NCBI GenBank assembly: GCA_044376465.1 | Contig: JBILKW010000001.1 | Coordinates: forward strand, 1-29,837 | Reading direction: 5' to 3' | DNA: 29,837 nucleotides | Source of the DNA: Sphingobacteriales bacterium | Lineage (GTDB): Bacteria > Bacteroidota > Bacteroidia > Sphingobacteriales > Sphingobacteriaceae | Part shown: piece by piece, positions 7,615 through 26,706 of the stretch | How the letters are laid out: every line of letters begins with the position of its first letter | Position numbering within the stretch: position 1 is the first letter of the stretch | The notes under the pieces: model-generated | Told to the model about the DNA's origin: nothing | Databases searched by the model: none | Seen by the model: the letters and a program-made list of their open reading frames with translations, nothing else | Program-made: the position numbers and the translations under genes

Positions 7615-10078
7615 GTTAAGTTTTTCAAAGTACGATGCTTATGCTGATGTAATTTTACCATTAGCCTTACCCCAAAGTTTCACGTATAGGGTGAGTATCG
7701 AAGCTATTGAAAGAATTAAAATAGGCTCAAGAGTAATTGTACCCTTTCAAGGAAACCGTCTGTACACAGCCATTGTTGAGCGAATACATACAAATGCACC
7801 ACAACACTATACGGCAAAATATATTTTAAATGTATTAGACGATGAGCCAATTTTACATTCTAAACAATTAGAACTGTGGAATTGGATTGCTAAGTATTAT
7901 GCTTGCCACGTTGGTGAAGTAATGAATGCAGCCTTACCAAGCGCTTTAAAATTAACAAGTGAAACAAAAGTTGTAATTAATAAACAAGTAGAATTTGATA
8001 TAGATGAACTACATGACAAAGAATATTTACTTATTGAGGCCATCCAAATTCAAGGTTCTATTACTATACAAGACATTCAAAAAATACTCGATCAGAAAAC
8101 AGTGATGCCCCTAATCAAACAAATGATTCAAAAAGGGTATATCTATTTAGAAGAAGAAATACAAGAAAAATACAAAGCCAAAACGCTTAAACACATAGTA
8201 CTCAAACCTTTGTATTTAGAGGAAAGAATGATAAAAATTCTGTTCGAAGAATTAGAGAAAAGGCCGAAGCAAATTGAAGTTTTGCAAGCGTATTTGAGAC
8301 TAAAAAAAGAACATGAATTTGTAAGCCCCAAATTAATTACTGATTTAGGGGCAAGTGCTTCTGCATTGCAAACTCTAATTAAAAATGAGGTATTCGACTT
8401 AGAAGAAACGGAAATTAGCAGAATAGAGAGGAGCATTATTGAGGAACAAAATGCATTTATTTTAAACAACGAGCAACAAGATGCATTAGTAGAAATTAAA
8501 GAAGCCTTTGAGTTGCGAATGCCTGTTTTGCTATATGGCATTACTTCATCTGGCAAAACAATTGTGTTTATAGAGCTTATTAAAGAGCAGTTGTTAAAAG
8601 GGAAACAGGTTTTAATTTTAGTTCCAGAAATTGGCTTAACCGCTCAGCTTATAGAGCGCTATAAAAAACATTTTGAAGAAGAAATTGGGGTTTATCACTC
8701 CCGCTATACCGAGAACCAACGTGCAGAAGTTTGGCAACAAACCTTAAAAGGAAACTTTAAAATAATTTTAGGAACCAGGTCTTCCATTTTTTTACCTTTT
8801 GAAAACCTAGGATTAATTATTGTAGATGAAGAACACGACCCATCTTACAAACAAAACGAACCAAACCCAAGGTACAATGCCCGCGATGTGTCTATTTATT
8901 TGGCACACCATTATACAGCAAATGTAATACTTGGATCGGCTACACCGTCTATAGAATCTTACTACAATAGCATTCAAAAAAAATACAGACTAGTAGAATT
9001 AAAAAACAGATTTGGTGCTGCTCAATTACCTGAAACAACTATTGTTACCTTACAAAACGATTTAGAGAAGGACTCCTCTCAACAATTATTTGGAAAAACA
9101 TTGTTGCATGAGATAGAGCTGAGATTGGCTAAAAAAGAGCAAGTAATATTGTTTCAAAACAGAAGAGGATATGCTCCATTTTTACATTGCTACCAGTGCG
9201 GACACAGTCCACAATGCACGCAATGCGATGTGAGTTTAACCTACCACAAATGGAAAAACGAACTCCGTTGCCATTACTGTGGTTACCATACACCGGTTAT
9301 AAAAGCATGCCCTAGTTGTGGTTCCGCTCATTTACAAATGATGGGTTTGGGTACGGAAAAAATTGAAGAAGAATTACAAGTATATTTTCCGGAAGCACGC
9401 ATTGCTAGAATGGATTTAGATACTACTCGTAAGAAAAACACCTTACAAGAGTTAATAAACGATTTTGAAAACGGGGAAATAGATATTTTGGTGGGCACAC
9501 AAATGGTTACAAAAGGATTAGATTTTGAAAAGGTAACTTTAGTGGGCATTATACAAGCAGATAGTTTAATTAATCACCCAGATTTCAGATCACATGAGCG
9601 TGCCTTTCAATTAATAGAACAAGTGAGCGGCAGAGCTGGCAGAAGAACTGAACGAGGGAAAGTTATCATACAAACTAGTAAACCTGATCATCCAATTTTA
9701 CAATTAGCTTCAAGGCATGATTATGATAGTTTCCTTCGGCAGCAGCTTACAGAACGTAAACAATTTTATTATCCACCTTTTGTACGCTTAATAGAAATTA
9801 CCTTAAAACATAAAGACTCACATAAAGTACAAAGAGCAGCACAACTTTTAGCTAAAGAGTATATACAACTGTTTACAGCAAAAAGTGTACTCGGGCCAGA
9901 ATTCCCAGTAATAAGTAAAGTACGCAATCAATACATTCAAAAAATAGTATTAAAATTAGATCGCCTAACACTAAACCTAGAAAAAAGCAAAGAAATTGTT
10001 CGAGTTAAAATTACTGAACTTAAAAGCAATAAAGAATTTAGTGCATGCACAGTGTTGATTGACGTAGACCCAATCTAG
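7607..10078 (+). CDS. priA: Primosomal protein N' (replication restart helicase)
   Basis: Walker A 'GITSSGKT', 'IVDEEHD', 'LGSATPS', two Cys-cluster Zn sites (CYQC..CTQC, CHYC..CPSC), 'GTQMVTKGLDF', 'QVSGRAGR', terminal 'DVDP'. The ATG at 7607 overlaps the DUF423 stop. Confidence 0.97.
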   Translation: MTELSFSKYDAYADVILPLALPQSFTYRVSIEAIERIKIGSRVIVPFQGNRLYTAIVERIHTNAPQHYTAKYILNVLDDEPILHSKQLELWNWIAKYYACHVGEVMNAALPSALKLTSETKVVINKQVEFDIDELHDKEYLLIEAIQIQGSITIQDIQKILDQKTVMPLIKQMIQKGYIYLEEEIQEKYKAKTLKHIVLKPLYLEERMIKILFEELEKRPKQIEVLQAYLRLKKEHEFVSPKLITDLGASASALQTLIKNEVFDLEETEISRIERSIIEEQNAFILNNEQQDALVEIKEAFELRMPVLLYGITSSGKTIVFIELIKEQLLKGKQVLILVPEIGLTAQLIERYKKHFEEEIGVYHSRYTENQRAEVWQQTLKGNFKIILGTRSSIFLPFENLGLIIVDEEHDPSYKQNEPNPRYNARDVSIYLAHHYTANVILGSATPSIESYYNSIQKKYRLVELKNRFGAAQLPETTIVTLQNDLEKDSSQQLFGKTLLHEIELRLAKKEQVILFQNRRGYAPFLHCYQCGHSPQCTQCDVSLTYHKWKNELRCHYCGYHTPVIKACPSCGSAHLQMMGLGTEKIEEELQVYFPEARIARMDLDTTRKKNTLQELINDFENGEIDILVGTQMVTKGLDFEKVTLVGIIQADSLINHPDFRSHERAFQLIEQVSGRAGRRTERGKVIIQTSKPDHPILQLASRHDYDSFLRQQLTERKQFYYPPFVRLIEITLKHKDSHKVQRAAQLLAKEYIQLFTAKSVLGPEFPVISKVRNQYIQKIVLKLDRLTLNLEKSKEIVRVKITELKSNKEFSACTVLIDVDPI

Positions 10079-10109
10079 TGTGCTAGCATACTAACACACT
10101 AGCACACTA
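10075..10109. repeat. Octamer array with inverted arms at the priA / sugar transferase convergent junction
   Basis: In-phase units CTAGTGTG, CTAGCATA, CTAACACA, CTAGCACA. TAGTGTGCTAG (10076-10086) and CTAGCACACTA (10099-10109) are perfect inverted repeats. Confidence 0.8.
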
Positions 10110-10110
10110 C

Positions 10111-11526
10111 CTACTTCCCTCTTCCTTCTATTACCGTTGCGATGGTAAAAAATAGAATTTTAAAATCAACAGCAAGGCTCATGTTTTCGATATAAATGAT
10201 GTCGTATTTTAAACGCTCTAACATTTGTTCAACATTTTCTGCATAGCCATATTTTACTTGCCCCCAAGAGGTAATTCCAGGGCGAACTTTTTGTAAGTGT
10301 TTATAGTGTGGAGCATACTCCATAATTTGATCAATAAAAAATTGACGTTCGGGACGTGGACCAACTAAGGACATGTCGCCGATGAGTACATTATAAAATT
10401 GTGGAATTTCGTCGAGGCGTGTTTTGCGCATAAACCTTCCGAATGGAGTAATACGCGAATCATTTTCGCTAGAAAGTTGTGGGCCTAGTTTTTCTGCGCC
10501 CACCACCATAGATCTAAACTTTATAATTTTAAAAGGTTTACCATGAATACCAATACGTGTTTGACTAAAAAACACTGGACCTTTGGACGTAAATTTTACA
10601 ATACATGCTGTAATGAAATAAACTGGAGAAAGAAATAATAAAAATCCAAGCGAAACAAATACGTCTATTATTCTTTTCATATTTAATTGCCATGCAGGCA
10701 TTAAATCTGTTTTAATTTGAATTAAGGGTACACCAAATAAATGATTCATTTTTACAGAACCCGTAATGATGTCGTACATATCTGGAATTATTTTAACATC
10801 AGCTTTAGAATTTTCTAACACTTCAATTATCTTTTTTAAATCGTCATGTTCTGAGGATTCAATTGCAATAATTACTTCTTGAATGTTATACTTTTTAACA
10901 ATATCTGCTACTTCCTCATATTTTCCTAACTGAGGAAGATGTTGTGCTAATTCATTTTGATGGTTTACATCACCATTTACAAATCCTATAAATTTAAAAC
11001 CAACAGATTCTTTTTCAGATTCCAACTCTTTAAATAGCTTATATGCTTTAGTATTACTTCCAACTATTAAGGTATTGAAGCCAATTATTCTGCGCTTTAT
11101 CTTAGACTTTGTACTTGATGTAATAATTAGTCGGGGTGTGGCCGTTGCAAAAAAATGTAGAACAACTAGTGTTAAAAAAGATTTGTAATAGTTGGTATAA
11201 TTTGCCACTTCATCGTCTAGAATTAGAGCGAAAAACAGAACCAAAACCCCAATAAATGTTTGTGAAGCTGTTTGTAAAACTTCTTTGAGTCTGGATTTTT
11301 TATATATATTTCTATATGTACCACTTACGGTATATATAATAAGCCAATAAAACGGAATAATTAACAAACCAAGATAGAAATTTCGGTCGAAATCGATGGG
11401 AACATCAAAACCGAATTTTAAAGGTTCTACATAAATTTTACGATATGCAAAAAAACAAACCCATACGATTATTGAGGTTGAATAATCTGTTATAATGTAT
11501 TTAAGTGTTTGTTTAAATTTGTTCAT
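10111..11526 (-). CDS. Priming glycosyltransferase (polyprenyl-phosphate sugar phosphotransferase, WcaJ/WbaP-like)
   Basis: N-terminal TM helices, CoA-binding-like middle region ('TLIVGSN'), and a catalytic domain with 'KRIIDV', 'KIIKFRSM', 'DSRITPFGRFMRKTRLDEIPQFYNVLIGDMSLVGPRPE', 'RPGITSWGQV'. Confidence 0.92.
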   Translation of the reverse strand: MNKFKQTLKYIITDYSTSIIVWVCFFAYRKIYVEPLKFGFDVPIDFDRNFYLGLLIIPFYWLIIYTVSGTYRNIYKKSRLKEVLQTASQTFIGVLVLFFALILDDEVANYTNYYKSFLTLVVLHFFATATPRLIITSSTKSKIKRRIIGFNTLIVGSNTKAYKLFKELESEKESVGFKFIGFVNGDVNHQNELAQHLPQLGKYEEVADIVKKYNIQEVIIAIESSEHDDLKKIIEVLENSKADVKIIPDMYDIITGSVKMNHLFGVPLIQIKTDLMPAWQLNMKRIIDVFVSLGFLLFLSPVYFITACIVKFTSKGPVFFSQTRIGIHGKPFKIIKFRSMVVGAEKLGPQLSSENDSRITPFGRFMRKTRLDEIPQFYNVLIGDMSLVGPRPERQFFIDQIMEYAPHYKHLQKVRPGITSWGQVKYGYAENVEQMLERLKYDIIYIENMSLAVDFKILFFTIATVIEGRGK

Positions 11527-12443
11527 TTATACATTACCCTGAAGTTATCTATCAACACCTGAGTACTGGACTTATTGGTATCATGCGCGGCTTTAAAATA
11601 TACTCTGTATTTAGAATTTGAGTACCTAGAAACTGTGGATGTAAGGTTTAAATATAATTTTTTCCATTCATTATTGGTTGCGAGCATGGTTATTACACTG
11701 GCTTCGGTTACTTCAACTCCGTTGTTATTAATTACATACAATCCAATATTTAAATTCACATCAGATCGGTAATTTACCTCAAGATATACAGGGCGAGAGT
11801 TATTGGGAAGTGAGTATGCTTTCTCCGTTTCAAATTCCATAAAATCTTTAGTAGCATTCATTTCCATTAACATAGAGAAATTACCATCAAACACTAAAGC
11901 CGGATTATCTGTTCTTAAAATAGTATCCACGTCAGAGTTTAGTGTAGTTCTAAAAAGAGTACCTACCCCTTCAAATTCCTCTGGAAATTGCCCAACAGCC
12001 TCGGAAGGAAATTTAACAGAAAATGGATCATAAGAAATCCTCACAGCTAAAGTATCCGTTTTACCTAACTCTGCATTTATGGTTGTACTGTAATTTGTGA
12101 AAAAGGGATAAATTCTGCGCTCGCCATTTTGTGCACTCATGAGTATACCAGGAGAAACTGTTATTTTACGCTGGCCTGCGCCACTAAATACCGGAACATG
12201 TGCAGGTAATTCAAATGTGCCTATGTAAATACCATCCACATATATCCAAGCATCTTTAATTTGATGTACCCCTGGTTTAGCAGCAATTGCAGGTATTTTT
12301 GTAGAATCCATAAAACTTATGGAATCAATTCTCAAATAGAATGGGATATCTTCGCTAGGATTTATAATTTCGCAAGATGAAACTGCAATAAAAACCGATA
12401 TTAGGGATATAAAATAAGTGGTACTTCGTAAAAGTTGTTTCAT
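11523..12443 (-). CDS. Uncharacterised 306-aa lipoprotein
   Basis: Lipobox 'VSSC' followed by EIINPSED. ATGA overlap with the sugar transferase start indicates translational coupling. Confidence 0.8.
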   Translation of the reverse strand: MKQLLRSTTYFISLISVFIAVSSCEIINPSEDIPFYLRIDSISFMDSTKIPAIAAKPGVHQIKDAWIYVDGIYIGTFELPAHVPVFSGAGQRKITVSPGILMSAQNGERRIYPFFTNYSTTINAELGKTDTLAVRISYDPFSVKFPSEAVGQFPEEFEGVGTLFRTTLNSDVDTILRTDNPALVFDGNFSMLMEMNATKDFMEFETEKAYSLPNNSRPVYLEVNYRSDVNLNIGLYVINNNGVEVTEASVITMLATNNEWKKLYLNLTSTVSRYSNSKYRVYFKAAHDTNKSSTQVLIDNFRVMYK

Positions 12444-12526
12444 GTATGAATTAAAAATTGTTCGAAAATAAGGAATTCCACTGAAAACTTAAGGATTAAA
12501 CGTTAAAAGCGAAAAGCTAGTATTTA

Positions 12527-13204
12527 ATGCAAATGAAAATTAAAGAATTAACTGATCAATTCATTGATAGTTACAAACATAAAGGGGAGCGTAAAATTCT
12601 TATAGAGCACTTGCGTAAACGAGGCATAACGAACGAACAGGTATTAGAATGTATGATGTTAGTTCCTAGACATTTTTTCTTTCACAAAGATTTTTGGGAC
12701 CATGCATATGAAGACAAAGCATTTCAGATAGGCGCTGGACAAACCATTTCTCACCCTCATACCGTTGCATATCAAACTGAATTATTAGGCATTACAGAAA
12801 ATGATAAGGTGTTAGAAATTGGCACAGGTTCAGGCTATCAAACATCAATATTATTAGAGTTGGGAGCCATAGTTTATACCATCGAACGGCAAAAAGAGCT
12901 TTTTGATAAAACTAAAAAGCTATTGAGTGCCCTTTCATATAAGCCCAAATACTTTTTTGGCGATGGCTCTAAAGGCATCCCTGCATTTGCTCCATTTGAT
13001 AAAATAATATGCACGGCAGGCTCACCAAGTATTCCAAACACCCTACTGGCTCAGTTAAAAATAGGAGGTCGAATGGTGATTCCTGTAGGAGATGAAAAGT
13101 CTCAAAAAATGAACTTAGTTGAGCGCATCACTCATTCAGAATTTCATACGGAAGCATTAGATTCTTTTCGCTTTGTGCCAATGATTGGAGAACAAGCCTG
13201 GTAA
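12527..13204 (+). CDS. pcm: Protein-L-isoaspartate O-methyltransferase
   Basis: 'VPRHFF', 'AYEDKAFQIGAGQTISHP', SAM motif 'VLEIGTGSGYQ', 'PFDKIICTAG', 'GGRMVIPVG', 'FRFVPM'. An alternative start is ATG 12533. Confidence 0.96.
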   Translation: MQMKIKELTDQFIDSYKHKGERKILIEHLRKRGITNEQVLECMMLVPRHFFFHKDFWDHAYEDKAFQIGAGQTISHPHTVAYQTELLGITENDKVLEIGTGSGYQTSILLELGAIVYTIERQKELFDKTKKLLSALSYKPKYFFGDGSKGIPAFAPFDKIICTAGSPSIPNTLLAQLKIGGRMVIPVGDEKSQKMNLVERITHSEFHTEALDSFRFVPMIGEQAW

Positions 13205-13251
13205 GATTATTGAGTATAAATACCAGCCCAACAAAGAGTTACGGACTCCCA

Positions 13252-13294
13252 TGTTTATGAACTTTGTGGATAAGTTATAAACAAATGTTAATAA
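13252..13294. promoter_or_regulatory. Cluster of DnaA-box-like 9-mers
   Basis: TGTGGATAA (13265-13273) is the perfect reverse complement of TTATCCACA. TTATAAACA (13275-13283), TGTTAATAA (13286-13294) and TGTTTATGA (13252-13260) fit or nearly fit TTATNNACA. Confidence 0.5.
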
Positions 13295-13344
13295 ATACAA
13301 GGTGCTCTAGCCCTTATATCCGAAAATGCCTGAGCAAATTTAGT

Positions 13345-13352
13345 TAGATTTG
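13345..13352 (+). promoter_or_regulatory. -7 element (TAGATTTG) for the beta-barrel gene
   Basis: Exact TAnnTTTG match 43 nt upstream of the ATG at 13396. Confidence 0.5.
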
Positions 13353-13395
13353 ATAATACAATATTTATTTTACTTTAAACCTAAAACAAAAAAGT

Positions 13396-14070
13396 ATGAA
13401 AAAATTAATGTTAATCGCAGTATTTGCTGGAGTAGCAACCATTGCATCTGCACAATTTAAACCTGAAGCTGGTCAAAAGACTTTAGAAACTAAATTAGCA
13501 CCGTTAGGCGGAACACCGCTTAGCATCGATGGAATTAGACTCAGAATGTTTAATGACGCTACTACTGCCTACAGATTAGGCCTGAACTTAAATTATTCAA
13601 ATTCGAAATCTAGAACTGGCACTACAGCTGATGGTTCAACCGAATTGTATGATAAAAATTCGGCTTTAGGTATTAGTTTAAGCCCAGGTATTGAAAAACA
13701 CATGGCAGGAACAAATAGATTATCGCCATATATGGGGGCTGAATTAAATATCGGTTTCCGAACAACCACAGAAGTATCTGAATTTGAAAGCACAACTACT
13801 GCTAACAAAGTGGAAGAACAAACCATTAAAGGTAACGGTGGCTTTTTCAGTGTAGGCGCAAATGTTGTAGCTGGTGCTGATTATTATATTTCGAGCAAAC
13901 TTTACATGGGGGTTGAACTAAGTTATGGACTTAACTTAGTAAATAGTGCAACCATTAAAGAAGAAACTACTGTAGCTGGTGCACCAACAGTTAAAGATCA
14001 AAAACCAGGAAATTCATTTAACTTTAGTCCTGGTGTAATGGGTCAGTTCCGTATAGGTTATGCGTTCTAA
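13396..14070 (+). CDS. Small outer-membrane beta-barrel protein (OMP_b-brl-like, probably 8 strands)
   Basis: Signal peptide ends ASA-Q. Alternating strands 'YRLGLNLNY', 'LSPYMGAELNIGF', 'LYMGVELSYGL', and a terminal BAM-type signal 'FRIGYAF'. Confidence 0.85.
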   Translation: MKKLMLIAVFAGVATIASAQFKPEAGQKTLETKLAPLGGTPLSIDGIRLRMFNDATTAYRLGLNLNYSNSKSRTGTTADGSTELYDKNSALGISLSPGIEKHMAGTNRLSPYMGAELNIGFRTTTEVSEFESTTTANKVEEQTIKGNGGFFSVGANVVAGADYYISSKLYMGVELSYGLNLVNSATIKEETTVAGAPTVKDQKPGNSFNFSPGVMGQFRIGYAF

Positions 14071-14090: not shown

Positions 14091-14138
14091 TATACTAAAT
14101 AAAAAATGCCCCAAATGGGGCATTTTTTATTTAGTATA
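14091..14138 (+). terminator. Intrinsic terminator of the beta-barrel gene (perfect 22-bp inverted repeat)
   Basis: TATACTAAATAAAAAATGCCCC, AAAT loop, GGGGCATTTTTTATTTAGTATA. Confidence 0.9.
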
Positions 14139-14596: not shown

Positions 14597-14691
14597 TCGA
14601 ACTAGCGAATTTACGAATTAGCGAATTTGCGAATTTGCGAAGTGCATCGAGTTCGCAAATTCGCTAGTTCGCAAATTCGCTAGTTCGATTT
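14594..14691. repeat. Long palindrome built from octamers at the smpB / mntH convergent junction
   Basis: Left units CTAGCGAA, TTTACGAA, TTAGCGAA, TTTGCGAA, TTTGCGAA (14602-14641). Right units TTCGCAAA and TTCGCTAG alternate (14652-14683). 14597-14633 matches the reverse complement of 14652-14688 at 35 of 37 positions. Confidence 0.92.
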
Positions 14692-16558
14692 AACGTTCTC
14701 TTGCAATTAACACCGGTATTTTCACCCTGTGGCGTAATGAATCGAGTGTTGAGCCTAGTAACAAATCTTTTATCCCTTTGTGTCCGTGCGCTGCTATTAC
14801 AATTAAATCTACTTGTTCTGTAGTGGCAATGTCGGCAATTGCTTTTGCAGGGTTTCCGTAACCAATTATAGATTCTGTTTTGAAATTATTTTTCTTCAAT
14901 TCTGTTACAAATAATTCTAATTCTTCTTTATCAGTTCGAGTTTCTTGATCGTCGGATTGTTTACCAGAATACCTAGCCGCTACCGTTTCAACCACATGTA
15001 CCAACACATAGGTTGCAGCATTCCCTCCTATTTGTAGGGCTTGGTTTATGGCAATTTTATCAAAAGAACTAAAGTCAATAGGAATTAAAATACGTTCTGC
15101 CCTCTTAGGTAAATCAATTTCAAAGGAATTAAAACCTGCATGCGGCAAAACCAATGGTCGCATGTTTTTACTTATCCATGGTTGTAAAATAATATAACCC
15201 AACAAGAATGCAAAAAAAGCAATTATTGGCAATACGAAATAATAAATCACCCATGTGCTTTCTGCTGTTTGTATCCAATCATTTAAATACTCATACACTA
15301 ATTTTATATTTAAACTAATGATGATAATGGCACTCAGCCATGCTAAAATTTTCAACCAATTTTTAATCACAAACTCCTCCATTTGTTTTTTATCCGAAGT
15401 AAAATGTATTAGAGGAATAATGGCGAAACCTAATTGTAAACTCAACACAACTTGACTTAAAATTAATAATGTCCCCAGTTTTTCTTCACCAAAATATAAG
15501 ATGGTTATAAATGCTGGAGTAACTGCAATTAGCCGCGTAATTAATCTACGCAACCAGGGTCTAATTCTTAAATTTAAATATCCTTCCATTACTATTTGCC
15601 CCGCCAGAGTACCTGTAATGGTTGAACTTTGTCCGGCACAAATAAGCGCTATAGCAAAAAGTGTAGGTGCTAAATTTCCGAATATATCTGATAATAGTCT
15701 GTGTGCATCTTGTATTTCGGCAACCTGAAAAAAGCCATTTTTATAAAATGCAGTAGCTGCTAAAATTAAAATGGAGGCATTTACAAAAAAAGCCAGATTT
15801 AACGCAATGGTAGAGTCTATAAAATTATATTTCAACGCGTCTTTAATCCCTTTATACGTTTTATTGATGGAGCGAGTTTGTACCAAGGAGGAATGTAAAT
15901 ACAAGTTATGTGGCATTACCGTAGCTCCGATAATACCGATGGCAATATACAGTGCACCGCCATCTAAATTAGTGGGCATAAAACCAGTAATTATTTCTGA
16001 AATTTTTGGCTGCGAAATGTAAAGTTCGATTAAAAATGAAATGCCAATTACAAAAATTAAGGAGATGATAAAACGTTCTAAAATTTTAATTCCTCTATTC
16101 ATCAGAAATAATAAAAGCAAGGTATCAAACACGGTAATGCATATACCAAGAAGCAAAGGCATACCAAATAATAGTTGTAACCCAATAGCCATGCCAATTA
16201 TTTCTGCAAGATCGCAAGCTGCAATGGCAAGTTCTGCCAATACATACAAAGGTATATTTACCCATGATGGATAAATTTTACGTGATGCTTGCGCTAAATC
16301 TAAGCCTCTTACAATCCCTAACCGTGCACTTAAACTTTGTAGTAAAAGTGCCATTAAGTTCGACATTAATAGAACCCATAATAACTGATAGCCGAACATA
16401 CTACCGCCCGCAATATCGGTAGCCCAATTACCCGGATCCATATAGCCTACGCTCACTAAATACGCCGGACCAACAAATGCGAAAAACTTTTTCCATTTAT
16501 TTTTCCCTTCGGGTATTTGCACACTTCTGTGTACTTCGCTCAACGATTCTTCTTGCAT
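14690..16558 (-). CDS. mntH: Nramp-family Mn2+ transporter with a C-terminal universal stress protein domain
   Basis: 'VGYMDPGNWATD', 'GATVMPHNLYLHS', 'GQSSTITGTLAGQIVMEG', 'ILSQVVLSLQL'. C-terminal USP fold 'ILIPIDFS...LIVIAAHGHKGIKDLLLGST...PVLI'. Confidence 0.95.
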   Translation of the reverse strand: MQEESLSEVHRSVQIPEGKNKWKKFFAFVGPAYLVSVGYMDPGNWATDIAGGSMFGYQLLWVLLMSNLMALLLQSLSARLGIVRGLDLAQASRKIYPSWVNIPLYVLAELAIAACDLAEIIGMAIGLQLLFGMPLLLGICITVFDTLLLLFLMNRGIKILERFIISLIFVIGISFLIELYISQPKISEIITGFMPTNLDGGALYIAIGIIGATVMPHNLYLHSSLVQTRSINKTYKGIKDALKYNFIDSTIALNLAFFVNASILILAATAFYKNGFFQVAEIQDAHRLLSDIFGNLAPTLFAIALICAGQSSTITGTLAGQIVMEGYLNLRIRPWLRRLITRLIAVTPAFITILYFGEEKLGTLLILSQVVLSLQLGFAIIPLIHFTSDKKQMEEFVIKNWLKILAWLSAIIIISLNIKLVYEYLNDWIQTAESTWVIYYFVLPIIAFFAFLLGYIILQPWISKNMRPLVLPHAGFNSFEIDLPKRAERILIPIDFSSFDKIAINQALQIGGNAATYVLVHVVETVAARYSGKQSDDQETRTDKEELELFVTELKKNNFKTESIIGYGNPAKAIADIATTEQVDLIVIAAHGHKGIKDLLLGSTLDSLRHRVKIPVLIARER

Positions 16559-18145: not shown

Positions 18146-18580
18146 ATGAATCATTTATTTTTACGATCATTATTAGTAATCGGAATCGCGTTTGGAATCG
18201 TATCATGTTCTGATGACGAAGTAAGCCCAGCTCCAACCATAATTGGCAAATGGAATGTAAACACATTTATCAATACTACAAAAATCGGAACAACAATCTT
18301 GTTGAATGATACTGCTAAATTTGACGCCGGTGAATTTACCATCGAATTTAGCGCCAATAAAGCATACAATACATTAGGGCCAGATAAGGATACGGTAGAA
18401 TATACTTTTAAAAACAATACCTTAACATTTTATGATTACGATCCAATTGATGGGTACGATACAACCGTGTTCAACTATGTAAATCTTACTAGCAATGGTT
18501 TAATAATTGCTTCGCGTGATACAACCATAACAACAGGTGGAGAACTGGTTTCTAACACTGAATGTAGAATGACTAAGTAA
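18146..18580 (+). CDS. Small lipoprotein, lipocalin-like fold
   Basis: Lipobox 'IVSC' followed by SDDE, and the motif 'IIGKWNV' typical of Bacteroidota lipocalin-like domains. Confidence 0.75.
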   Translation: MNHLFLRSLLVIGIAFGIVSCSDDEVSPAPTIIGKWNVNTFINTTKIGTTILLNDTAKFDAGEFTIEFSANKAYNTLGPDKDTVEYTFKNNTLTFYDYDPIDGYDTTVFNYVNLTSNGLIIASRDTTITTGGELVSNTECRMTK

Positions 18581-18587: not shown

Positions 18588-18643
18588 AGTCAGAAAACTT
18601 AAAGACCGAAAGTTGATCATTCGGATTTTCGGTCTTTAGGATG
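18588..18643. repeat. Degenerate octamer array forming a hairpin (probable bidirectional terminator) at the lipoprotein / lysS junction
   Basis: TAAAGACCGAAA (18600-18611) pairs with TTTCGGTCTTTA (18627-18638). Right units TTCGGATT, TTCGGTCT, TTAGGATG. Left units AGTCAGAA and AGACCGAA. Confidence 0.7.
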
Positions 18644-20363: not shown

Positions 20364-20379
20364 TTCTGTCTGTTTTGTG

Positions 20380-20387: not shown

Positions 20388-20398
20388 ATATTAATTAG

Positions 20399-20434
20399 CT
20401 AATTTGCTAGTGTGCTAGTGTGCTAGTGTGCTAA
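20399..20434. repeat. Direct octamer array in the lysS / DUF962 divergent region
   Basis: CTAATTTG, then (CTAGTGTG)x3, then CTAA. The unit is identical to the one at 10075. Confidence 0.88.
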
Positions 20435-20473
20435 TAGTTGGTACATTTTCTTAAATTAGCTTAAAATAATAAT

Positions 20474-20779
20474 ATGTCGGAACGTATTAAAAGCTTTAAT
20501 GAATTCTATCAGTTTTACTTAACTGAACATTCAAATACAACAAGTCGCAGGTTGCATTTTATTGGCACCGCATTAGTGTTTATACAAGCAATATGCTTAA
20601 CTTATTTTGACACTTGGAATTTGTGGTATATACTTCCAATTACAGGCTACTTCTTCGCTTGGGTAGGACATTTTTTTTTCGAAAAAAACAAACCTGCTAC
20701 GTTTAAATATCCACTCTGGAGTTTAGCCAGCGACTTTAGGTTGTTTTTTGAAATTCTCTCTGGCCGAAGGCCAATATGA
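20474..20779 (+). CDS. DUF962 / Mpo1-like small membrane protein
   Basis: 'FYQFYLTEHSN...RRLHFIGT', 'GYFFAWVGHFFFEKNKPATFKYPLWSLASDF'. Confidence 0.9.
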   Translation: MSERIKSFNEFYQFYLTEHSNTTSRRLHFIGTALVFIQAICLTYFDTWNLWYILPITGYFFAWVGHFFFEKNKPATFKYPLWSLASDFRLFFEILSGRRPI

Positions 20780-20874
20780 AAATGCGTAAATGTGCAAATT
20801 AGCACTTAGGTCCCTTCATTTGCACATTTGCACATTTGAACATTTGAACATTTGCACATTTTCTAATTTACACA
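20773..20874. repeat. Octamer arrays in inverted arrangement at the DUF962 / proline dehydrogenase junction
   Basis: Left units AATATGAA, AATGCGTA, AATGTGCA, AATTAGCA (20773-20804). Right units TTTGCACA x2, TTTGAACA x2, TTTGCACA, TTTTCTAA, TTTACACA (20819-20874). Confidence 0.9.
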
Positions 20875-22043
20875 TTGGCTCTTCTTTTTTTCTCTTTCAA
20901 TATCAAACTCAACTCTCTACCCATTTGCCCTGCAATAGCTGTATTTTCTTGAGCTCTACGGAATAAATATGGGAGTACAGATTTTACTGGTCCGTAGGGT
21001 ACATATTTAGCAATATTGTAACCTGCTTTCGCTAGGTTGTAACTTAAGTTATCGCTCATGCCCAATAACTGTGAGAAATAAATACGATCATCATTAGCAG
21101 CAATACTATTTTTTGCCATTAAATCGATTAAATATTTCGAGCTGTTTTCATTGTGTGTACCTGCGCAAATAGCTATTCTATCTATATGTTCTACACAATA
21201 TGCTAAACCTAAATCGTAATCAACATCCGACGATTTTTTATCAGCTTGTATAGGCGAGGGATAATTATTTTCTGCAGCGCGTTTACGTTCTTTTTCCATG
21301 TAAGCACCTCGTACTAATTTAACGCCCAATAAAACACCTTCAGATTTCAATTGTGCATCAAACTCTTTCATGGCTTGTAAACGATCGTGGCGGTAAAACT
21401 GAAAAGTATTGTAAACAATTACTTTTTCTTTATTGAACAATCGCATCATATCCATAGATAAATCGTCGATGGTTTGTTGAATCCAACTTTCTTCGGCATC
21501 TATAAAAACACGAACATTTAAGTCATAAGCTGTTTGGCAAATTCTGCGCACTCTATCTTTTACCCGTTCAAATTCTTTTTTCTCCTCAAAACTGAGTTCT
21601 TCTTTAGCATCTAATTTTTCTAACAGTCCGAATCGTGCTAAACCAGTAACTTTAAATACAGAAAAAGGTATTGTTCCATCGCCTTTTGCACGTTTAATGG
21701 TGGCAATGGTTTCTTCGCAGGTAGCATTAAAAGCTTGTTCTGTAGATTCTCCTTCTACAGAATAATCCAAAATAGTACCTATGTTGTACTTCCCAAGCTT
21801 TATAATGGTTTTAGTGCAATCGCTTATCGACTCGCCACCACAAAATTGTTTGAAAATAGTAGCGCGAATAATTGGGGTAATAGGTAAGCCAATTTTTATG
21901 GCTGCAGTAGTTATTGGTGGACCAATTTTTACCAGAAAATTGATATTAATGACTTTGAATAACCAATAGGCTCTGTTTAAATCGGCATTACTCATTCCTG
22001 AGAAGGCGATTTCAGTATTATCAAAAGATATAGTGTTGCTCAT
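20868..22043 (-). CDS. Monofunctional proline dehydrogenase
   Basis: 'FKQFCGGE', 'ILDYSVEG', 'VFIDAEESWIQ', 'GVKLVRGAYMEKER', 'GTHNE', 'FSQLLGMSD', 'KYVPYG', 'YLFRRAQEN'. There is no P5C dehydrogenase domain. Start reassigned to ATG 22043. Confidence 0.93.
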   Translation of the reverse strand: MSNTISFDNTEIAFSGMSNADLNRAYWLFKVININFLVKIGPPITTAAIKIGLPITPIIRATIFKQFCGGESISDCTKTIIKLGKYNIGTILDYSVEGESTEQAFNATCEETIATIKRAKGDGTIPFSVFKVTGLARFGLLEKLDAKEELSFEEKKEFERVKDRVRRICQTAYDLNVRVFIDAEESWIQQTIDDLSMDMMRLFNKEKVIVYNTFQFYRHDRLQAMKEFDAQLKSEGVLLGVKLVRGAYMEKERKRAAENNYPSPIQADKKSSDVDYDLGLAYCVEHIDRIAICAGTHNENSSKYLIDLMAKNSIAANDDRIYFSQLLGMSDNLSYNLAKAGYNIAKYVPYGPVKSVLPYLFRRAQENTAIAGQMGRELSLILKEKKRRANV

Positions 22044-22061
22044 TGTTTGTTTAAGGTGCTT

Positions 22062-22069
22062 CAAAAATA
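22062..22069 (-). promoter_or_regulatory. -7 element (TATTTTTG) for proline dehydrogenase
   Basis: Exact TAnnTTTG match. The ORF-track TTG start (22064) lies inside it, which argues for ATG 22043. Confidence 0.6.
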
Positions 22070-22180
22070 GGAAAAAAGCGTAATTTTATTAATAAATAAT
22101 ACATTATTGAAAACCATTTTGTTTTTATTTGTTTTGTAATTGATGATTACCGAAAGGTATATTTTTTTGAATTGATATAA

Positions 22181-23269
22181 ATGACAACATCTATAAAATC
22201 AGACCAGTTAAATACTTGGTTAGACTCTAATTTAAAGACCTTTATAATTGCAGGCCCATGCAGTGTAGAATCTGAAGAACAGATTAACAAAACGGCAGAG
22301 GGATTAGCAGCCATTCAAGTTCCGGTGTTAAGAGGCGGAATTTGGAAACCTCGTACTCGCCCAGGCTCCTTTACTGGTATAGGAAATGTAGGGATTCAAT
22401 GGTTAGCTGATGCTGCAAGAGCACATGGCATGAAGAGTGCGGTGGAAGTGGCTAATGCCAAACATGTTGAAGATTGTTTAAAAGCAGGGATCGATATATT
22501 TTGGATAGGTGCAAGATCAACCGTTAGCCCATTTGTAGTACAAGAAATTGCCGATGCCCTTAAAGGCGTAAACATTCCGGTAATGGTAAAAAATCCAATC
22601 AACCCCGACATAGAGTTGTGGATTGGAGCAATAGAACGTATACACAATGCTGGCATTAATAAAATTGCAGCCATACACAGAGGGTTCTCTCAATATGAAA
22701 AAAATACGTATCGTAATACTCCCAATTGGAACATCCCATTAGAATTGAAACGCCTCATTCCAAACTTACCTGTAATTTGCGACCCTAGCCATATATGTGG
22801 AAGCATAGAACTAATTCCACACGTAAGTCAAAAAGCAATGGATTTAAATTTGGATGGATTAATGATTGAAGCACATTATAATCCAAGTTTAGCATTGAGC
22901 GATAGGGATCAACAACTTACTTCGTCAGCTGTTTCTGATTTAATTAAAAATTTAATTATTAGGAACACCGAATCAGAAAACGCAGAATTTAGAGACCAAT
23001 TGGTTCGCTTAAGAACAGACATCGATAAGATAGATTACGAAGTATTAGAACTCCTAGCATCTAGGTCTAAATTGGTTAATGAAATTGGCTTGTATAAAAA
23101 AGAAAATAACATCACCATTTTTCAACCCGAGCGCTGGTCGGAAATAGTGAATACCAGAAAAAAATACGGAAAAGAAATTCACCTTTCTGAAGAAATGATA
23201 TTAGATTTGGTTAAATTGATTCACCGTGAATCTATTTCTGTACAAACTAAAGTAATGCAAGATGAATGA
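22181..23269 (+). CDS. Bifunctional DAHP synthase (type I-beta-like) with C-terminal chorismate mutase
   Basis: 'IAGPCSVE', 'WKPRTRPGSF', 'IGARST', 'VKNPIN', 'IHRGF', 'DPSH', 'GLMIEAH'. C-terminal AroQ-like 'LVRLRTDIDKIDYEVLELLASR'. Confidence 0.92.
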   Translation: MTTSIKSDQLNTWLDSNLKTFIIAGPCSVESEEQINKTAEGLAAIQVPVLRGGIWKPRTRPGSFTGIGNVGIQWLADAARAHGMKSAVEVANAKHVEDCLKAGIDIFWIGARSTVSPFVVQEIADALKGVNIPVMVKNPINPDIELWIGAIERIHNAGINKIAAIHRGFSQYEKNTYRNTPNWNIPLELKRLIPNLPVICDPSHICGSIELIPHVSQKAMDLNLDGLMIEAHYNPSLALSDRDQQLTSSAVSDLIKNLIIRNTESENAEFRDQLVRLRTDIDKIDYEVLELLASRSKLVNEIGLYKKENNITIFQPERWSEIVNTRKKYGKEIHLSEEMILDLVKLIHRESISVQTKVMQDE

Positions 23270-24338
23270 TATTAGAAGCAGTTTTGGATACGATATATTT
23301 ATTGAAGACTCCATTGCATCTTTAGACACTTGGTTAGAAACTCAACAATACTCTAAAGTAGCAATACTTGGAGATACTCACACATTAGAAGTTTGCTTGC
23401 CCTATTTAAATTTATATTCTAAGCACAGCTCACAATATGATTTAATAGAAATTGACCCCGGTGAAGATAATAAAAACATTGATATCTGTATCGGAGTGTG
23501 GAGCATGATGCAAGAGTTTGGTTTGGATCGCAAATCATTACTCATAAATCTAGGAGGTGGAGTAATTACAGACATGGGTGGATTTGCAGCATCTACTTAC
23601 ATGCGAGGTATTGATTTTATTAATATTCCCACTACTCTACTTGCAATGGTAGATGCAAGTATTGGCGGAAAAACAGGGTTAGATTTACAGAATTATAAAA
23701 ATCATTTAGGTACCTTTCATCATCCAAAAGCAATTTTTATTATCCCCGAATTTCTCAGCACCTTACATGAATTAGAAATTAAATCGGGTTTTGCAGAAGT
23801 AATTAAACACGGCTTAATTGCCGACCATTTACATTTAAGAGATGCCATTAGCTTTTTAGAAAATGGAGAAATTGGACTAGAAGTTTTAATACCTCAAAGT
23901 GTAAAAATAAAATTAGCCATTGTAGAAAAAGATCCGTTTGAAAAAGACATTCGAAAGGCATTAAATTTTGGACATACCGTTGGTCATGCTATAGAAAGCT
24001 ACTATTTAAACAAAGGCAAACTTATTATGCATGGTAGCGCCATTGCATGTGGAATGATGGTGGAGTCTTTTTTAAGTGTTAGCAAATGCAAAATGCCTGA
24101 AACAGATTTAAAATATATTTTAGAAATAATTCCCAACTATTTAGAACCGGCAAAACTAAATGAAGAAATGATTTTAGATGTAATAGAGTTAATGCGAAAA
24201 GATAAAAAGAATGAATCGTCGGAAATTAAATTTTCATTATTGAGTGCCATTGCTAGCCCTAGTTTAAACATAAGATGTTCGGAGGAAGAAATATCGGAAG
24301 CACTTGTAAAATGCATTCACTATTTTAATTTTAAATGA
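23262..24338 (+). CDS. aroB: 3-dehydroquinate synthase
   Basis: 'NLGGGVITDMGGFAASTYMRGI', 'PTTLLAMVDASIGGKTG', 'GFAEVIKHG', 'LNFGHTVGHAIE', 'DKKN'. Overlaps the upstream stop by 8 nt. Confidence 0.96.
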   Translation: MNDIRSSFGYDIFIEDSIASLDTWLETQQYSKVAILGDTHTLEVCLPYLNLYSKHSSQYDLIEIDPGEDNKNIDICIGVWSMMQEFGLDRKSLLINLGGGVITDMGGFAASTYMRGIDFINIPTTLLAMVDASIGGKTGLDLQNYKNHLGTFHHPKAIFIIPEFLSTLHELEIKSGFAEVIKHGLIADHLHLRDAISFLENGEIGLEVLIPQSVKIKLAIVEKDPFEKDIRKALNFGHTVGHAIESYYLNKGKLIMHGSAIACGMMVESFLSVSKCKMPETDLKYILEIIPNYLEPAKLNEEMILDVIELMRKDKKNESSEIKFSLLSAIASPSLNIRCSEEEISEALVKCIHYFNFK

Positions 24339-25546
24339 GAATACTAAAACCAGCAACATTTACTAGTACAGAAATTATATTACCTGGTTCTAAGAGCGAG
24401 TCGAACAGAGCATTAATTATAAAAGCGCTCTGCGAAGATGAAATTACGATTCAGAATTTATCCAACTCAGACGATACAAAAATTATTGCCGATGCATTAA
24501 ACACTAAACAATCTGTAATAGACTGTGGGCAATCTGGCGCAGCCTTACGGTTTTTGTGTGCTTATTTTTCGACTATTAAAAACAATACCGTAATCTTAAC
24601 AGGTTCTCAGCGATTAAAAGAACGCCCCTTAAAAATATTAATTGATGCTTTAACAGAATTAGGTGCAGAAATAGAGTATATAGAAAAAGTAGGTTATGCA
24701 CCCATAAAAATTAAAGGGAGAGAATTAGTTTCTCATAAAGCGATTAATATACAAGCAAATATTAGCAGCCAATTTATTTCGGCCTTGTTGATGATTGCAC
24801 CAAAAGTGAAAAACGGATTACAATTACATTTAGAAAACGAACTAATTTCTGCACCCTATTTAAAAATGACGATGCAGATGATGCATGATGCAAAAATTCA
24901 CATCATAGAAAACGAAAATAGCATTATCATTCCGGAGCAAGAATATCAGGCTTGCAACATTAACATTGAAGCAGATTGGAGTGCTGCTTCATACTGGTAC
25001 GCCTTGGTTTCATTAGGAATTCCGGAGATAATATTAAAAAGTTTGCATAAAAATAGTTTACAAGGAGATGCAATTATTGCTACTTGGATGAACGATTTTG
25101 GAGTGCAAACTAGTTTCGAAGATGGAGGCATTAAATTAACAAAAACATCTAGCATAAAACTACAAAAAGTATATAATTTTATAAATTGCCCCGACATAGC
25201 TCAAACGCTAATAGTATTGGCTGCATTACATTTGAAGGAAATAGTTTTTACTGGCATAGAAAGTTTAGCAATAAAAGAAACCGATAGAATTGAAGCCTTA
25301 AAAAATGAATTACAAAAAATAAATATAACATGGCACAGCAATTCAGATACTCATTTCATAAAAATAAATCAACAAGATTATACAAGGGCAGTACACATAA
25401 ATACTTACCACGACCATAGAATGGCCATGGCATTTACAATGCTAGCCATGAAGTTTGATGAACTATACATTGACGATAAAGAAGTAGTAAACAAATCGTA
25501 TCCGAATTTTTGGATAGATTTAACAAAAATGGGATTTAGAATTTAG
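24335..25546 (+). CDS. aroA: 3-phosphoshikimate 1-carboxyvinyltransferase (EPSP synthase)
   Basis: 'PGSKSESNR', 'RLKERP', 'SSQFISALLM', 'CPDIAQT', 'IKETDRI', 'HDHRMAMAF', 'KSYPNFW'. ATGA overlap with aroB. Confidence 0.95.
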   Translation: MRILKPATFTSTEIILPGSKSESNRALIIKALCEDEITIQNLSNSDDTKIIADALNTKQSVIDCGQSGAALRFLCAYFSTIKNNTVILTGSQRLKERPLKILIDALTELGAEIEYIEKVGYAPIKIKGRELVSHKAINIQANISSQFISALLMIAPKVKNGLQLHLENELISAPYLKMTMQMMHDAKIHIIENENSIIIPEQEYQACNINIEADWSAASYWYALVSLGIPEIILKSLHKNSLQGDAIIATWMNDFGVQTSFEDGGIKLTKTSSIKLQKVYNFINCPDIAQTLIVLAALHLKEIVFTGIESLAIKETDRIEALKNELQKINITWHSNSDTHFIKINQQDYTRAVHINTYHDHRMAMAFTMLAMKFDELYIDDKEVVNKSYPNFWIDLTKMGFRI

Positions 25547-25576
25547 ATATTAGAATTTAGAATTTAGAATTTGTAA
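25535..25576 (+). repeat. Direct heptamer array at the aroA-aroC junction
   Basis: TTTAGAA, TTTAGAT, ATTAGAA, TTTAGAA, TTTAGAA, TTTGTAA in phase. The first two units encode the last codons (F-R-I) and the TAG of aroA. Confidence 0.88.
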
Positions 25577-25578
25577 AC

Positions 25579-26631
25579 ATGGCAGGAAATACATTCGGAG
25601 AAAAATTTAAAATAAGCACCTTCGGCGAATCGCACGGAGCGGCCATAGGTGTAGTAATAGATGGATGCCCTGCAGGCATAGTACTCGATTTAAAAAAAAT
25701 ACAACAGGAACTTAATCGCAGAAAACCAGGCCAATCTTCTATCACCACTAGTAGAGCAGAAGAAGATGAATTCGAAATTTTATCTGGAATTTTTGAGGGT
25801 AAAACCTTGGGAACACCGATCGCCATTATTGTTCGCAATACAAATGCGAAACCAACAGATTACGATTATTTAAAAGATGCTTATCGCCCGTCGCATGCAG
25901 ATTATACGTATGAGATGAAATATGGAATTCGCGATCATCGTGGTGGCGGACGATCTTCTGCACGTGAAACCATTGCCAGGGTTGCGGCTGGAGCCATAGC
26001 AAAACAGCTACTAGCAAAAGAGGGAATCGAAATTTCGGCATTTGTTAAACAAGTTGGAGAAATAAAAGTAGAGAAACATTATACCGAATTAGATTTAAGT
26101 AATACGGATGATAACATTGTTCGTTGCCCAGATGCCTCAACGGCACAAAAAATGATTGAAGCCATAGAACACGTAAAAAAAGATGGCGATACATTAGGCG
26201 GCGTTATACAATGTGTAATTAAAAATGTACCGGCCGGTTTAGGCGAACCAGTATTCGATAAATTACAGGCCTTGCTTGCTCATGCCATGATGAGTATTAA
26301 TGCCGTGCATGGTTTCGAATATGGATCGGGATTTGCAGGTGCTGCTAAAAAAGGTTCGGAGAATAACGATGAATGGGAAAATGTTGAGGGCAAGATACGC
26401 GCCAAAACAAATAATGCCGGTGGTATTTTAGGTGGTATAAGTACCGGAGAAGATATTTACTTCAACGTTGCCTTTAAACCCGTAGCTACTATTTTAAAAT
26501 CTCAACAAAGCGTAAATACCAAAGGCGAAGAAATAAAATTACAAAATGAAGGCAGACACGATCCTTGTGTATTACCTAGAGCAGTACCTATCGTGGAAGC
26601 TATGGCAGCTTTAGTAATTTTGAATTGTTAA
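25579..26631 (+). CDS. aroC: Chorismate synthase, possibly lacking the last ~10 residues
   Basis: 'TFGESHG', 'RRKPGQ', 'RPSHAD', '[11 protein letters not shown]', '[11 protein letters not shown]', 'FKPVATI', '[18 protein letters not shown]'. It ends abruptly at 'ALVILNC'. Confidence 0.95.
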
Positions 26632-26706
26632 TTGTCAATTGTCAATTAAGCAATGTTGTAACTGTAATGCTTAATTCACAATTGACAATTCACAATTGAC
26701 AATTTA
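26616..26706. repeat. Long palindrome built from heptamers at the aroC / E1 convergent junction
   Basis: Left units TGAATTG, TTAATTG, TCAATTG, TCAATTA, then AGCA. Right side TGCT, then TAATTCA, CAATTGA, CAATTCA, CAATTGA, CAATTTA. 26616-26652 pairs with 26668-26704 with 4 mismatches in 37. Confidence 0.9.

Follow-up and report, generated by a model that had tools for sequence, protein, structure and literature searches.

Tandem repeats with a seven-nucleotide unit are over-represented in many bacterial genomes and have, to our knowledge, no accepted explanation. Here we describe a system of intergenic arrays of tandem 7- and 8-nt units, many of them paired into hairpins, in a 29,837-nt stretch of DNA from a Sphingobacteriales bacterium (contig JBILKW010000001.1, positions 1 to 29,837; hereafter, the window). 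The arrays had been noticed in an earlier reading of the window that used its letters only (the sequence-only reading). The genome that holds the window (G000) is a fragmented metagenome-assembled genome (MAG) of 2.16 Mb in 240 contigs, with 34.8% GC and a completeness of 96%. The organism is an uncultured freshwater member of the Sphingobacteriales; G000-like DNA is present in many lake-water metagenomes, and the SmpB proteins of Pedobacter and Mucilaginibacter are 63-72% identical to that of G000. We compared G000 with eight congeners (G001-G008) and with other relatives among the 16 sampled (G009, G013 and G015 are named below).

Intervening sequences (IVS) of 23S rRNA that bear an open reading frame (ORF) are known from cases in Leptospira and Coxiella, and this ORF defines the Pfam family PF05635 (23S_rRNA_IVP). 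We know of no function for PF05635 proteins outside diversity-generating retroelements.

Among the repeats, the heptameric simple sequence repeats (SSRs) of Xanthomonas (GGGAATC) and Nostoc (GGGGAYT) are dispersed and lie mostly at most 50 bp from a stop codon or overlap it (Rehm et al. 2015, PMC4692102). They are enriched in non-coding DNA, rare between divergent genes and mostly transcribed, and each Xanthomonas genome has 70-75 convergent inverted heptamer pairs (PMC4692102). Their copy number is variable, with a preferred small number of units that was attributed to G-quadruplexes; they were not associated with mobile elements, and no link to gene cassettes was reported (PMC4692102). The heptanucleotide repeats of cyanobacteria, first reported in Calothrix, belong to the same class and are cited in that paper. 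A second type, the direct TAACTGA repeats found in Beggiatoaceae, cyanobacteria and some Bacteroidetes, often lies a few nucleotides upstream of start codons and shows indels in 7-nt steps between strains, and a role in translational regulation was proposed for it (MacGregor 2015, PMC4679880). Gramella and Aequorivita have long mixed heptamer arrays that are absent from close relatives, and contigs ending in the repeats were noted as well (PMC4679880). The constant-size tandem repeats of Subirana and Messeguer, at 20-21 or 52 nt, are a different thing. Heptamer repeats are already described in print; a published link between them and gene cassettes, either of the four-helix-bundle/S23p (PF05635) or of the GxxExxY type, was not found in the literature searched (subscription papers lay outside it).

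Array-armed hairpins and the genes at their apex

On balance, the arrays are probably the arms, or leftover arms, of genome-wide and fast-evolving hairpin elements that are mainly selfish or neutral DNA and not dedicated terminators. In its full form, such an element would be a hairpin with stems of tandem 7- or 8-nt units and, at its apex, a small self-contained gene. The apex gene would be of the PF05635 type, of the GxxExxY/PDDEXK_3 type or, in one congener, a MazF toxin-antitoxin pair.

Arrays were detected with Tandem Repeats Finder (TRF) in the window and in the whole genome, and those of the window were also read directly. The arms of the window hairpins were taken from an inverted-repeat scan, folding z-scores from RNA folds compared with shuffles, and the chance level for arrays from composition-matched shuffles of intergenic DNA. 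Genes of G000 were called crudely as longest ORFs (1931 genes, 91.5% coding).

All nine genes of G000 that encode PF05635 proteins (23S rRNA IVS protein, a four-helix bundle) have an array on each side, and in most cases the units of the two arrays are reverse-complementary. For example, the gene of cassette C6 lies between TGAGTTG (8.9 copies) and AACTCAC (4.9 copies), and that of cassette C24 between TAGTGTGC (4.6 copies) and CACTAGCA (6.6 copies). Inverted GCAAAGGA arrays enclose one of the three PDDEXK_3 (GxxExxY) genes, and the other two are cut by contig ends. The sequence-only reading had proposed an association of similar arrays with four-helix-bundle and GxxExxY cassettes, and these flanks bear it out. 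Across the 16 relatives, surveyed over 100 kb each, the number of arrays per 100 kb correlates with the number of PF05635 genes per Mb (Spearman 0.84, for genomes that are not phylogenetically independent and whose GC content co-varies). The five relatives with at most 0.42 PF05635 genes per Mb had no arrays in their 100-kb samples.

Upstream of several PF05635 genes (C24:6792-6850, C6:11351, C149:345), we also observed a motif, GGATGATAAA, and after it a palindrome similar to CCTGCA..TGCAGG and a run of T; this region may serve the cassette as its own insulator or promoter. Among the 17 sites listed for this motif, about a dozen have no PF05635 gene nearby, and only three of those lie beside arrays. 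Thus GGATGATAAA, considered as a marker of decayed cassettes, fails to explain the bulk of the arrays.

The window itself contains gene-less forms only and no PF05635 ORF, and two of its junctions are filled in congeners, as described below. Pfam confirms the identity of the genes that border its sites, namely priA, sugar transferase, smpB, mntH, lysS, DUF962/Mpo1-like, proline dehydrogenase, aroA, aroC and E1 dehydrogenase. The sites are the following:

10076..10109, no strand: short hairpin with an 11-bp stem, composed of four TAGTGTGC-family octamers, which fills the convergent gap between priA and the sugar-transferase gene (fold z -5.0)
14597..14688, no strand: long hairpin of alternating CTAGCGAA / TTTGCGAA octamers in the smpB-mntH gap (-62 kcal/mol, z -11.4)
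20398..20435, plus strand: lone direct octamer array of GCTAATGT / GCTAGTGT in the divergent lysS / DUF962 gap (z -0.55)
20770..20879, no strand: imperfect hairpin of AAATGTGC / CATTTGCA octamers in the gap between DUF962 and proline dehydrogenase (z -4.4)
25534..25572, plus strand: lone direct heptamer array of ATTTAGA, 5.6 copies, in the aroA-aroC operon spacer (z -1.1)
26611..26709, no strand: hairpin of AATTGTC / AATTGAC / AATTCAC heptamers in the gap between aroC and E1 dehydrogenase (z -5.7)
18598..18637, no strand: ordinary stem-loop, its stem perfect over 11 bp, at the convergent hyp144 / lysS junction (z -4.3)

By TRF and direct reading, the period-8 arrays of the window extend over 10090-10109, 14598-14641, 14650-14687, 20398-20435 and 20817-20876, and the period-7 arrays over 25534-25572, 26615-26647 and 26673-26704. 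Several of them reach into the ends of genes. The hairpin at 10076-10109 begins with the TAG stop codon of priA and ends 1 nt short of the stop of the sugar-transferase gene. The two arms at smpB/mntH (left 14597-14641, right 14650-14688) touch both stop codons and pair over 37 nt with 95% complementarity (14597-14633 with 14652-14688 in the inverted-repeat scan), while those at the end of aroC pair over 42 nt with 86% (26611-26652 with 26668-26709), the left arm encoding the last aroC codons and the stop. The pairing at 20770-20879 is looser than in the other window hairpins, and its right arm (20817-20876) outlasts the left. The ATTTAGA array overlaps the end of aroA and stops 6 nt before the start codon of aroC. 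RNA folding gave z-scores from -4.4 to -11.4 for the four array hairpins, and the arrays at 20398 and 25534 fold no better than shuffles, in agreement with the earlier description of the two arrays at non-convergent junctions as direct-only.

The sequence-only reading had counted seven arrays in the window and had assigned inverted arms to five of its six convergent junctions. Six real 7/8-nt arrays were recovered, with array hairpins at four of those six junctions; the remaining site, at 18588, has no TRF array and no family copies anywhere in the genome and is a plain stem-loop. In congeners the hyp144/lysS junction carries a classic bidirectional terminator composed of an A-tract, a stem and a T-tract, and the stem-loop at 18598-18637 is outside the array system. 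Textbook bidirectional intrinsic terminators were also seen at 14091-14138 and 417-471 of the window, with perfect arms of 23 nt and 14-15 nt and with A-/T-tracts, so the organism uses canonical terminators where arrays are absent. The protein of 144 aa encoded at 18146-18580 has no Pfam match and is 30-49% identical among congeners, compared with 92-98% for the neighboring LysS; from this divergence, it appears to be the product of an unusually fast-evolving or replaced gene.

The units are not specific to single loci: for six of the seven loci of the window, the genome contains between 21 and 59 related ones each, with a similarity that covers the arms only and never the loops or flanks. The TAGTGTGC-type family of the hairpin at 10076-10109 has 21 loci, and the ATTTAGA-array family of 25534-25572 has 36. 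Altogether, we identified 469 merged non-coding arrays in G000 (243 of period 7 and 226 of period 8), which cover 20,031 of 183,452 non-coding bp (11%) and whose units are 72% A+T with no G-tracts. At a TRF score of at least 40, there are genome-wide 207 arrays of period 7 (192 of them non-coding) and 170 of period 8 (160 non-coding), together with two of period 6, seven of period 9 and 13 of period 10. Strictly intergenic DNA contains 151 period-7 and 150 period-8 arrays vs. 0.2 and 1.0 in the composition-matched shuffles, and periods 9-12 stay at the shuffle level there. The arrays therefore stand out clearly from shuffled intergenic DNA, and the early observation that the period is always 7 or 8 extends from the window to the genome, where only these two are enriched.

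The array units fall into few superfamilies. The degenerate octamer YTWGCRMA, which the sequence-only reading had extracted from a handful of loci, matches 99 of the 211 octamer arrays (1.5 expected from letter-shuffled units), and AATTSWN matches 120 of the 225 heptamer arrays (20.5 expected). The distribution of copy number has its maximum at 4.5-5 units, in period-7 and period-8 arrays alike, which indicates that the preferred size is counted in units and not in bases. One 34-nt TAGTGTGC block with a single fixed order of variants recurs at 7 loci (at most one mismatch), compared with 0-3 loci for eleven permuted orders; at least some arrays have thus spread as copies. An inverted partner at most 150 nt away was found for 175 of the 469 arrays, the other ~63% being lone direct arrays, and the short-loop hairpins of G000 number about 78-88, with a median arm of 32 nt.

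Turnover at orthologous junctions and in lake populations

Judging from aligned orthologous junctions, filled, empty, one-armed and unoccupied states of the elements occur at the same sites in close relatives. Both the turnover of units and the presence or absence of cassettes, which had been anticipated from the window, were found among the congeners. The C24 site is the clearest series. It is filled in G000 and G005, whereas G008 has the same TAGTGTGC and CACTAGCA arms around a loop of ~9 nt, with just the apex missing, symmetrically. G007 has an empty hairpin there with a diverged unit, GTGTTAAT, in both arms, and in G006 inverted TTAATGTG arrays enclose a gene for a PemK/MazF toxin (Pfam E = 1e-27) together with an ORF of 76 aa upstream of it (L148:2100-2790). 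The C6, C174 and C149 cassette sites likewise vary among the congeners, some of which carry the cassette while others are empty or unoccupied there. Over all sites compared, unoccupied states include a gap of 8 nt (at priA, see below) and one of 25 nt, both in G007. At C149 the PF05635 proteins are 67-70% identical, compared with 92-99% for the flanking proteins, which points to replacement of the cassette.

The sequence-only reading suggested that the arrays could be empty cassette sites, and the congeners support this, since the window junctions at 10075 and 20398 are both filled in some of them and the C24 arms can stand empty, as in G008. At lysS/DUF962, a PF05635 cassette between inverted arrays is present in G002, G003 and G006, and its arm unit, CATTAGCA, is a reverse-complement rotation of the unit of the window array at 20398-20435. 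That array is homologous to the lysS-side arm of the congener cassette. A gene-less remnant of 239 nt occupies the junction in G001, and a lone array occupies it in G000, G004, G005 and G008. At priA/sugar transferase, G004 has a PF05635 cassette with TAATTAGC arms, another allele of PF05635, flanked by TAAATTG arms, is present in G003 and G002, the hairpin of G006 is empty and has a ~55-nt loop, and G007 has an 8-nt gap and no array.

The other array junctions of the window vary as well. At smpB/mntH, every congener examined has an array that starts at the smpB stop, and units, copy number and architecture all differ. The units are entirely different in the eight congeners, though their SmpB proteins are 88-99% identical: G005 has the right-arm type only, G004 has 2.5 units, G007 a ATATGCTA hairpin and G002 a long GTCGAAGG array. 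Among the other genera sampled, G013 of the same family has a lone TAATACT array at this place, more distant ones are without an array, and G009, which is among these, has an ordinary terminator. The DUF962/proline dehydrogenase junction has a hairpin of the same family in G004, G005 and G008, other units in G002, G003 and G006, and none in G001. In G007, the DUF962/Mpo1-like gene alone is inverted (L122:1369-2054) and lies between inverted 9-nt arrays, CAATTTGGA / AAATTGTTC; this flank is the only clear case of a period-9 array that we saw.

The aroA-aroC junction of the congeners carries members of the ATTTAGA-array superfamily in either orientation or as a hairpin. At the other end of aroC, the tail of the protein is longer and conserved (...LDFLLLSNK-type) in G002, G006 and G007, and is encoded by the array in G000, G004 and G005 (...VILNC*, ...VNCKL*; window 26601-26633), so that the repeat has rewritten the C-terminus of AroC. 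A 118-aa, weakly cupin-like gene follows aroC in G004-G007 (L128:2650-3031 in G005) and is absent from G000 (window 26631-26704). In G005, a GTGAATT array follows aroC, and the cupin gene is followed by the aroC hairpin of the window, which has a near-identical loop and is orthologous. Compared with G000, this arrangement fits a deletion of the cupin gene between two direct GTGAATT-type arrays. On the evidence of these alignments, arrays delete and invert neighboring genes and rewrite gene ends. The same comparisons show the two arms of a hairpin as mirror copies that change in concert between congeners, in keeping with the matched variant units of paired arms first seen in the window.

Contigs of three independent lake metagenomes, from different studies, reproduce the arrays. 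Those that bridge an array differ by whole units, namely 7 nt at 26616 and 24 nt (3 units) at 20824, and a lake contig across 20841-26900 has 14 gap letters. Arrays thus grow and shrink by whole units, and the indels seen in natural populations, of 7, 14 and 24 nt, agree with the local slippage invoked by the sequence-only reading. A stretch of 80 nt (14613-14692), nearly the whole smpB hairpin, is missing in one lake contig that is ~99.7% identical to the window and has 23 other differences over ~7.2 kb. Many public contigs break at arrays, as expected because the arrays are multi-copy repeats. Such breaks, the division of G000 into 240 contigs and the position of 23 arrays at most 60 nt from a contig end are what speaks for artefacts in the assembly of a fragmented metagenome bin. 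However, there is hardly any chance that the arrays arose in this way, since the three other lake metagenomes reproduce them, several being bridged with only whole-unit differences, and arrays occupy the corresponding junctions of eight congener genomes.

These states suggest how the elements might change. Gene-less hairpins could derive from full elements by loss of the apex or, equally possibly, cassettes could insert into the apex of a hairpin, and lone direct arrays plausibly come from the loss of one arm. Self-complementarity would be kept up by intrastrand pairing or by selection for the stem. Spread of some arrays as fixed blocks of about 4-5 units is partly shown by the recurrent 34-nt block. 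The elements would settle where DNA is tolerated, directly after or over stop codons and in operon spacers, and tolerance is presumably the reason that they persist. At the RNA level, they would act at most as 3' stem-loops.

Placement at gene boundaries and competing explanations

Arrays occupy 31% of convergent, 13.9% of co-directional and 10.8% of divergent junctions, and the corresponding numbers for hairpins are 10.7%, 3.8% and 2.8%. The convergent bias of the arrays is real, about 2-3 fold; nonetheless, most arrays lie between co-directional genes (169 occupied junctions vs. 70 convergent ones). The description of the system as palindromes at convergent gene ends was therefore right as to the bias and too narrow as a rule, the more so as ~63% of the arrays are unpaired. 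Stop codons are a stronger landmark: 176 of 381 arrays (46%) lie at most 5 nt from one, compared with 72 expected by random placement within their own spacers, and 114 of the 381 contain it. Lone TAGTGTGC arrays start with the gene's own TAG and are both strand- and position-specific, and lone AATTCAC arrays end 0-7 nt before start codons, in the sense of the gene. Among lone arrays that abut a stop codon, 75 of 102 close all three frames in gene sense vs. 57 of 102 in antisense, a modest bias. Octamers that contain TTTG are similar to part of the -7 box of Bacteroidota, which makes promoters within the arrays conceivable.

This placement bears on the proposal, made in the sequence-only reading, that the arrays are kept as bidirectional terminators or 3'-end protectors. 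If the hairpins were selected as U-tract-independent bidirectional terminators or mRNA-protecting 3' stem-loops, and lone arrays were their decayed versions, one could account for the highest occupancy at convergent junctions, which holds for arrays and for hairpins, and for the very stable folds. Canonical terminators, as defined by a simple and insensitive rule (a stem that contains GC, with a 3-8-nt loop, and after it 8 nt of which at least 6 are T), were found at 5.5% of gene 3' ends with arrays vs. 15.2% of those without, and at 1.7% vs. 21% of convergent junctions (Fisher p = 3e-5). Arrays thus displace classic terminators and nearly exclude them where they are present, and in relatives, classic terminators occupy the one window junction that lacks an array-type hairpin. 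We nevertheless consider this explanation unlikely. At least 6 T in the next 8 nt follow only 3 of 78 hairpins, which is the background level (4.5%). At co-directional junctions, fewer than 25 nt separate 59% of the hairpins from the start codon that follows, much as for lone arrays, so that transcription of the downstream genes has to pass through them. A population of 99.7% identity lacks the smpB hairpin, there is nothing at the priA junction of G007 apart from an 8-nt gap, and ~63% of the arrays have no inverted partner. RNA evidence, in the form of assembled contigs of one small metatranscriptome that carry no strand or 3'-end information, includes one contig (26520-26731) across the entire aroC hairpin, a weak sign of read-through for which DNA carry-over is possible. 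Without a U-tract, often located inside operons, and missing in near-identical strains and in congeners, the hairpins speak against a dedicated terminator role; a modest effect as 3' stem-loops is possible. The deepest metatranscriptome contig of the stretch lies elsewhere, at 13373-14039 (depth 56 vs. 4-7 elsewhere), over a gene (13396-14070) for a 224-aa protein with no Pfam match.

The sharp unit size, with a sequence that is variable within few superfamilies, and the peak at 4.5-5 units for both periods would also suit periodic protein-binding sites with one unit per subunit, the candidate protein being a PF05635 pentamer that regulates or processes RNA or DNA at gene boundaries. Some lone arrays are fixed in strand and position (TAGTGTGC at stops, AATTCAC 0-7 nt before starts), and the entry of PDB 2RLD, the nearest homologue with a solved structure (E = 2e-30), contains five identical chains, which suggests one unit per subunit of a pentamer as a lead, no more. 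Five chains in a crystal entry are not proof of a pentamer, however, and the unit-number peak could stem from fixed-block spread or from an optimal stem length. Wholly different units at one site among close relatives are hard to square with a conserved recognition code, and free arrays were missing from the samples of two genomes rich in PF05635 genes, so that we find binding sites of this kind doubtful. Ordinary slippage microsatellites, born from AT-rich spacers and only incidentally linked to cassettes, would fit the whole-unit length polymorphism, the high turnover of units at fixed sites and the lack of a dedicated enzyme in the PF00078 and PF01797 searches. Yet slippage alone leaves unexplained why periods 7 and 8 only are enriched ~150-fold or more, with 5, 6 and 9-12 at chance, why the units belong to few shared superfamilies, why a 34-nt block recurs in fixed order, why arms are mirror images and why arrays flank all nine PF05635 genes. 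Among relatives of similar GC content, those that have no PF05635 gene also lack arrays in their samples (e.g., G015 at 38.5% GC), and we regard a purely microsatellite origin as very unlikely.

Several observations weigh against the hairpin elements that we favor. No array was present in the 100-kb samples of two relatives that have 7-8 PF05635 genes, and in G000 arrays exceed cassettes ~40 to 1, which means that most arrays cannot be traced to descent from cassettes. According to BLAST between loci, hairpin copies share their arms only and not their loops or flanks, a misfit with simple copy-and-paste of whole elements. Neither a reverse transcriptase (PF00078) nor a Y1/RAYT transposase (PF01797) was found in G000 (96% complete), which leaves the elements without a candidate mobility enzyme; for the same reason, the dedicated repeat-adding enzyme suggested earlier and a REP/RAYT origin were dropped. 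The rarity of canonical terminators at gene 3' ends with arrays fits a terminator-substitute role too, and G000 is a fragmented MAG with crude longest-ORF gene calls.

A more ambitious idea, which we offer as a tentative possibility, is that array-armed hairpins are the docking platform of an undescribed gene-cassette system of bacteria in which small selfish genes at the apex, for PF05635 four-helix bundles, GxxExxY nucleases or toxin-antitoxin pairs, are swapped and arms of ~5 units are read by a pentameric PF05635 protein. If true, it would also explain the excess of heptamer repeats in many bacterial phyla. Counting of units would then be a new mode of nucleic-acid recognition, and the exchange of apex genes a new kind of cassette exchange.

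Comparison with described repeat systems

The hairpin elements proposed here have traits of several described systems. With the repeats of the Xanthomonas-Nostoc type, they share dispersed tandem 7-nt units, enrichment in non-coding DNA, proximity to stop codons, depletion between divergent genes, inverted pairs and a variable copy number with a preferred number of units, and both the tandem structure and the placement of heptameric SSRs are found in G000. In contrast, the arrays of G000 are AT-rich and have no capacity for G-quadruplexes, periods 7 and 8 are equally common, and many families coexist. Since AT-rich arrays have the same habits without any G-quadruplex potential, the explanation by G-quadruplexes is weakened. 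The TAACTGA repeats are also intergenic heptamers that vary in 7-nt steps, and the AATTCAC family of G000 likewise abuts start codons in sense; unlike the arrays described here, they have one dominant unit, are nearly all direct and have no described link to cassettes.

Repetitive extragenic palindromic (REP) sequences, bacterial interspersed mosaic elements (BIMEs) and MITEs (miniature transposable elements with inverted repeats) are similar in being small, palindromic and intergenic, with hundreds of copies, an enrichment at gene 3' ends and a capacity to promote rearrangements. The arrays of G000 differ in that they have no single conserved palindrome and no Y1/RAYT gene, and in that their stems are internally tandem-repetitive and change by whole units; the exclusion of REP/BIME copies in the sequence-only reading stands on these grounds. 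Its exclusion of CRISPR stands as well, because the units are 7-8 nt long and follow head to tail with no spacers, whereas CRISPR repeats have 23-50 nt and unique spacers. In a comparison of defining traits, the arrays showed neither the U-tract nor the transcription-unit-end placement of intrinsic terminators, and none of the marks of REP/RAYT, CRISPR or reverse-transcriptase systems.

The genus examined here is a compact natural experiment that ties heptamer repeats to PF05635, in a setting where flanking proteins are about 80-99% identical. It also displays the costs and effects of such repeats, which include gene deletion, inversion, rewritten C-termini, lost canonical terminators and broken assemblies. 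IVS-type PF05635 cassettes with pairing flanks are present in the genome and not in the window itself. Large-subunit (23S) rRNA genes, sought for a classical IVS with the same arms, were not found in G000 and four relatives, all MAGs. Like the ORF-bearing IVS of 23S rRNA, the full elements have a long stem, made by inverted flanks, with a PF05635 gene at its apex; in contrast to them, the elements of G000 lie between protein genes, have stems made of tandem 7/8-nt arrays and are gene-less in most of their copies.

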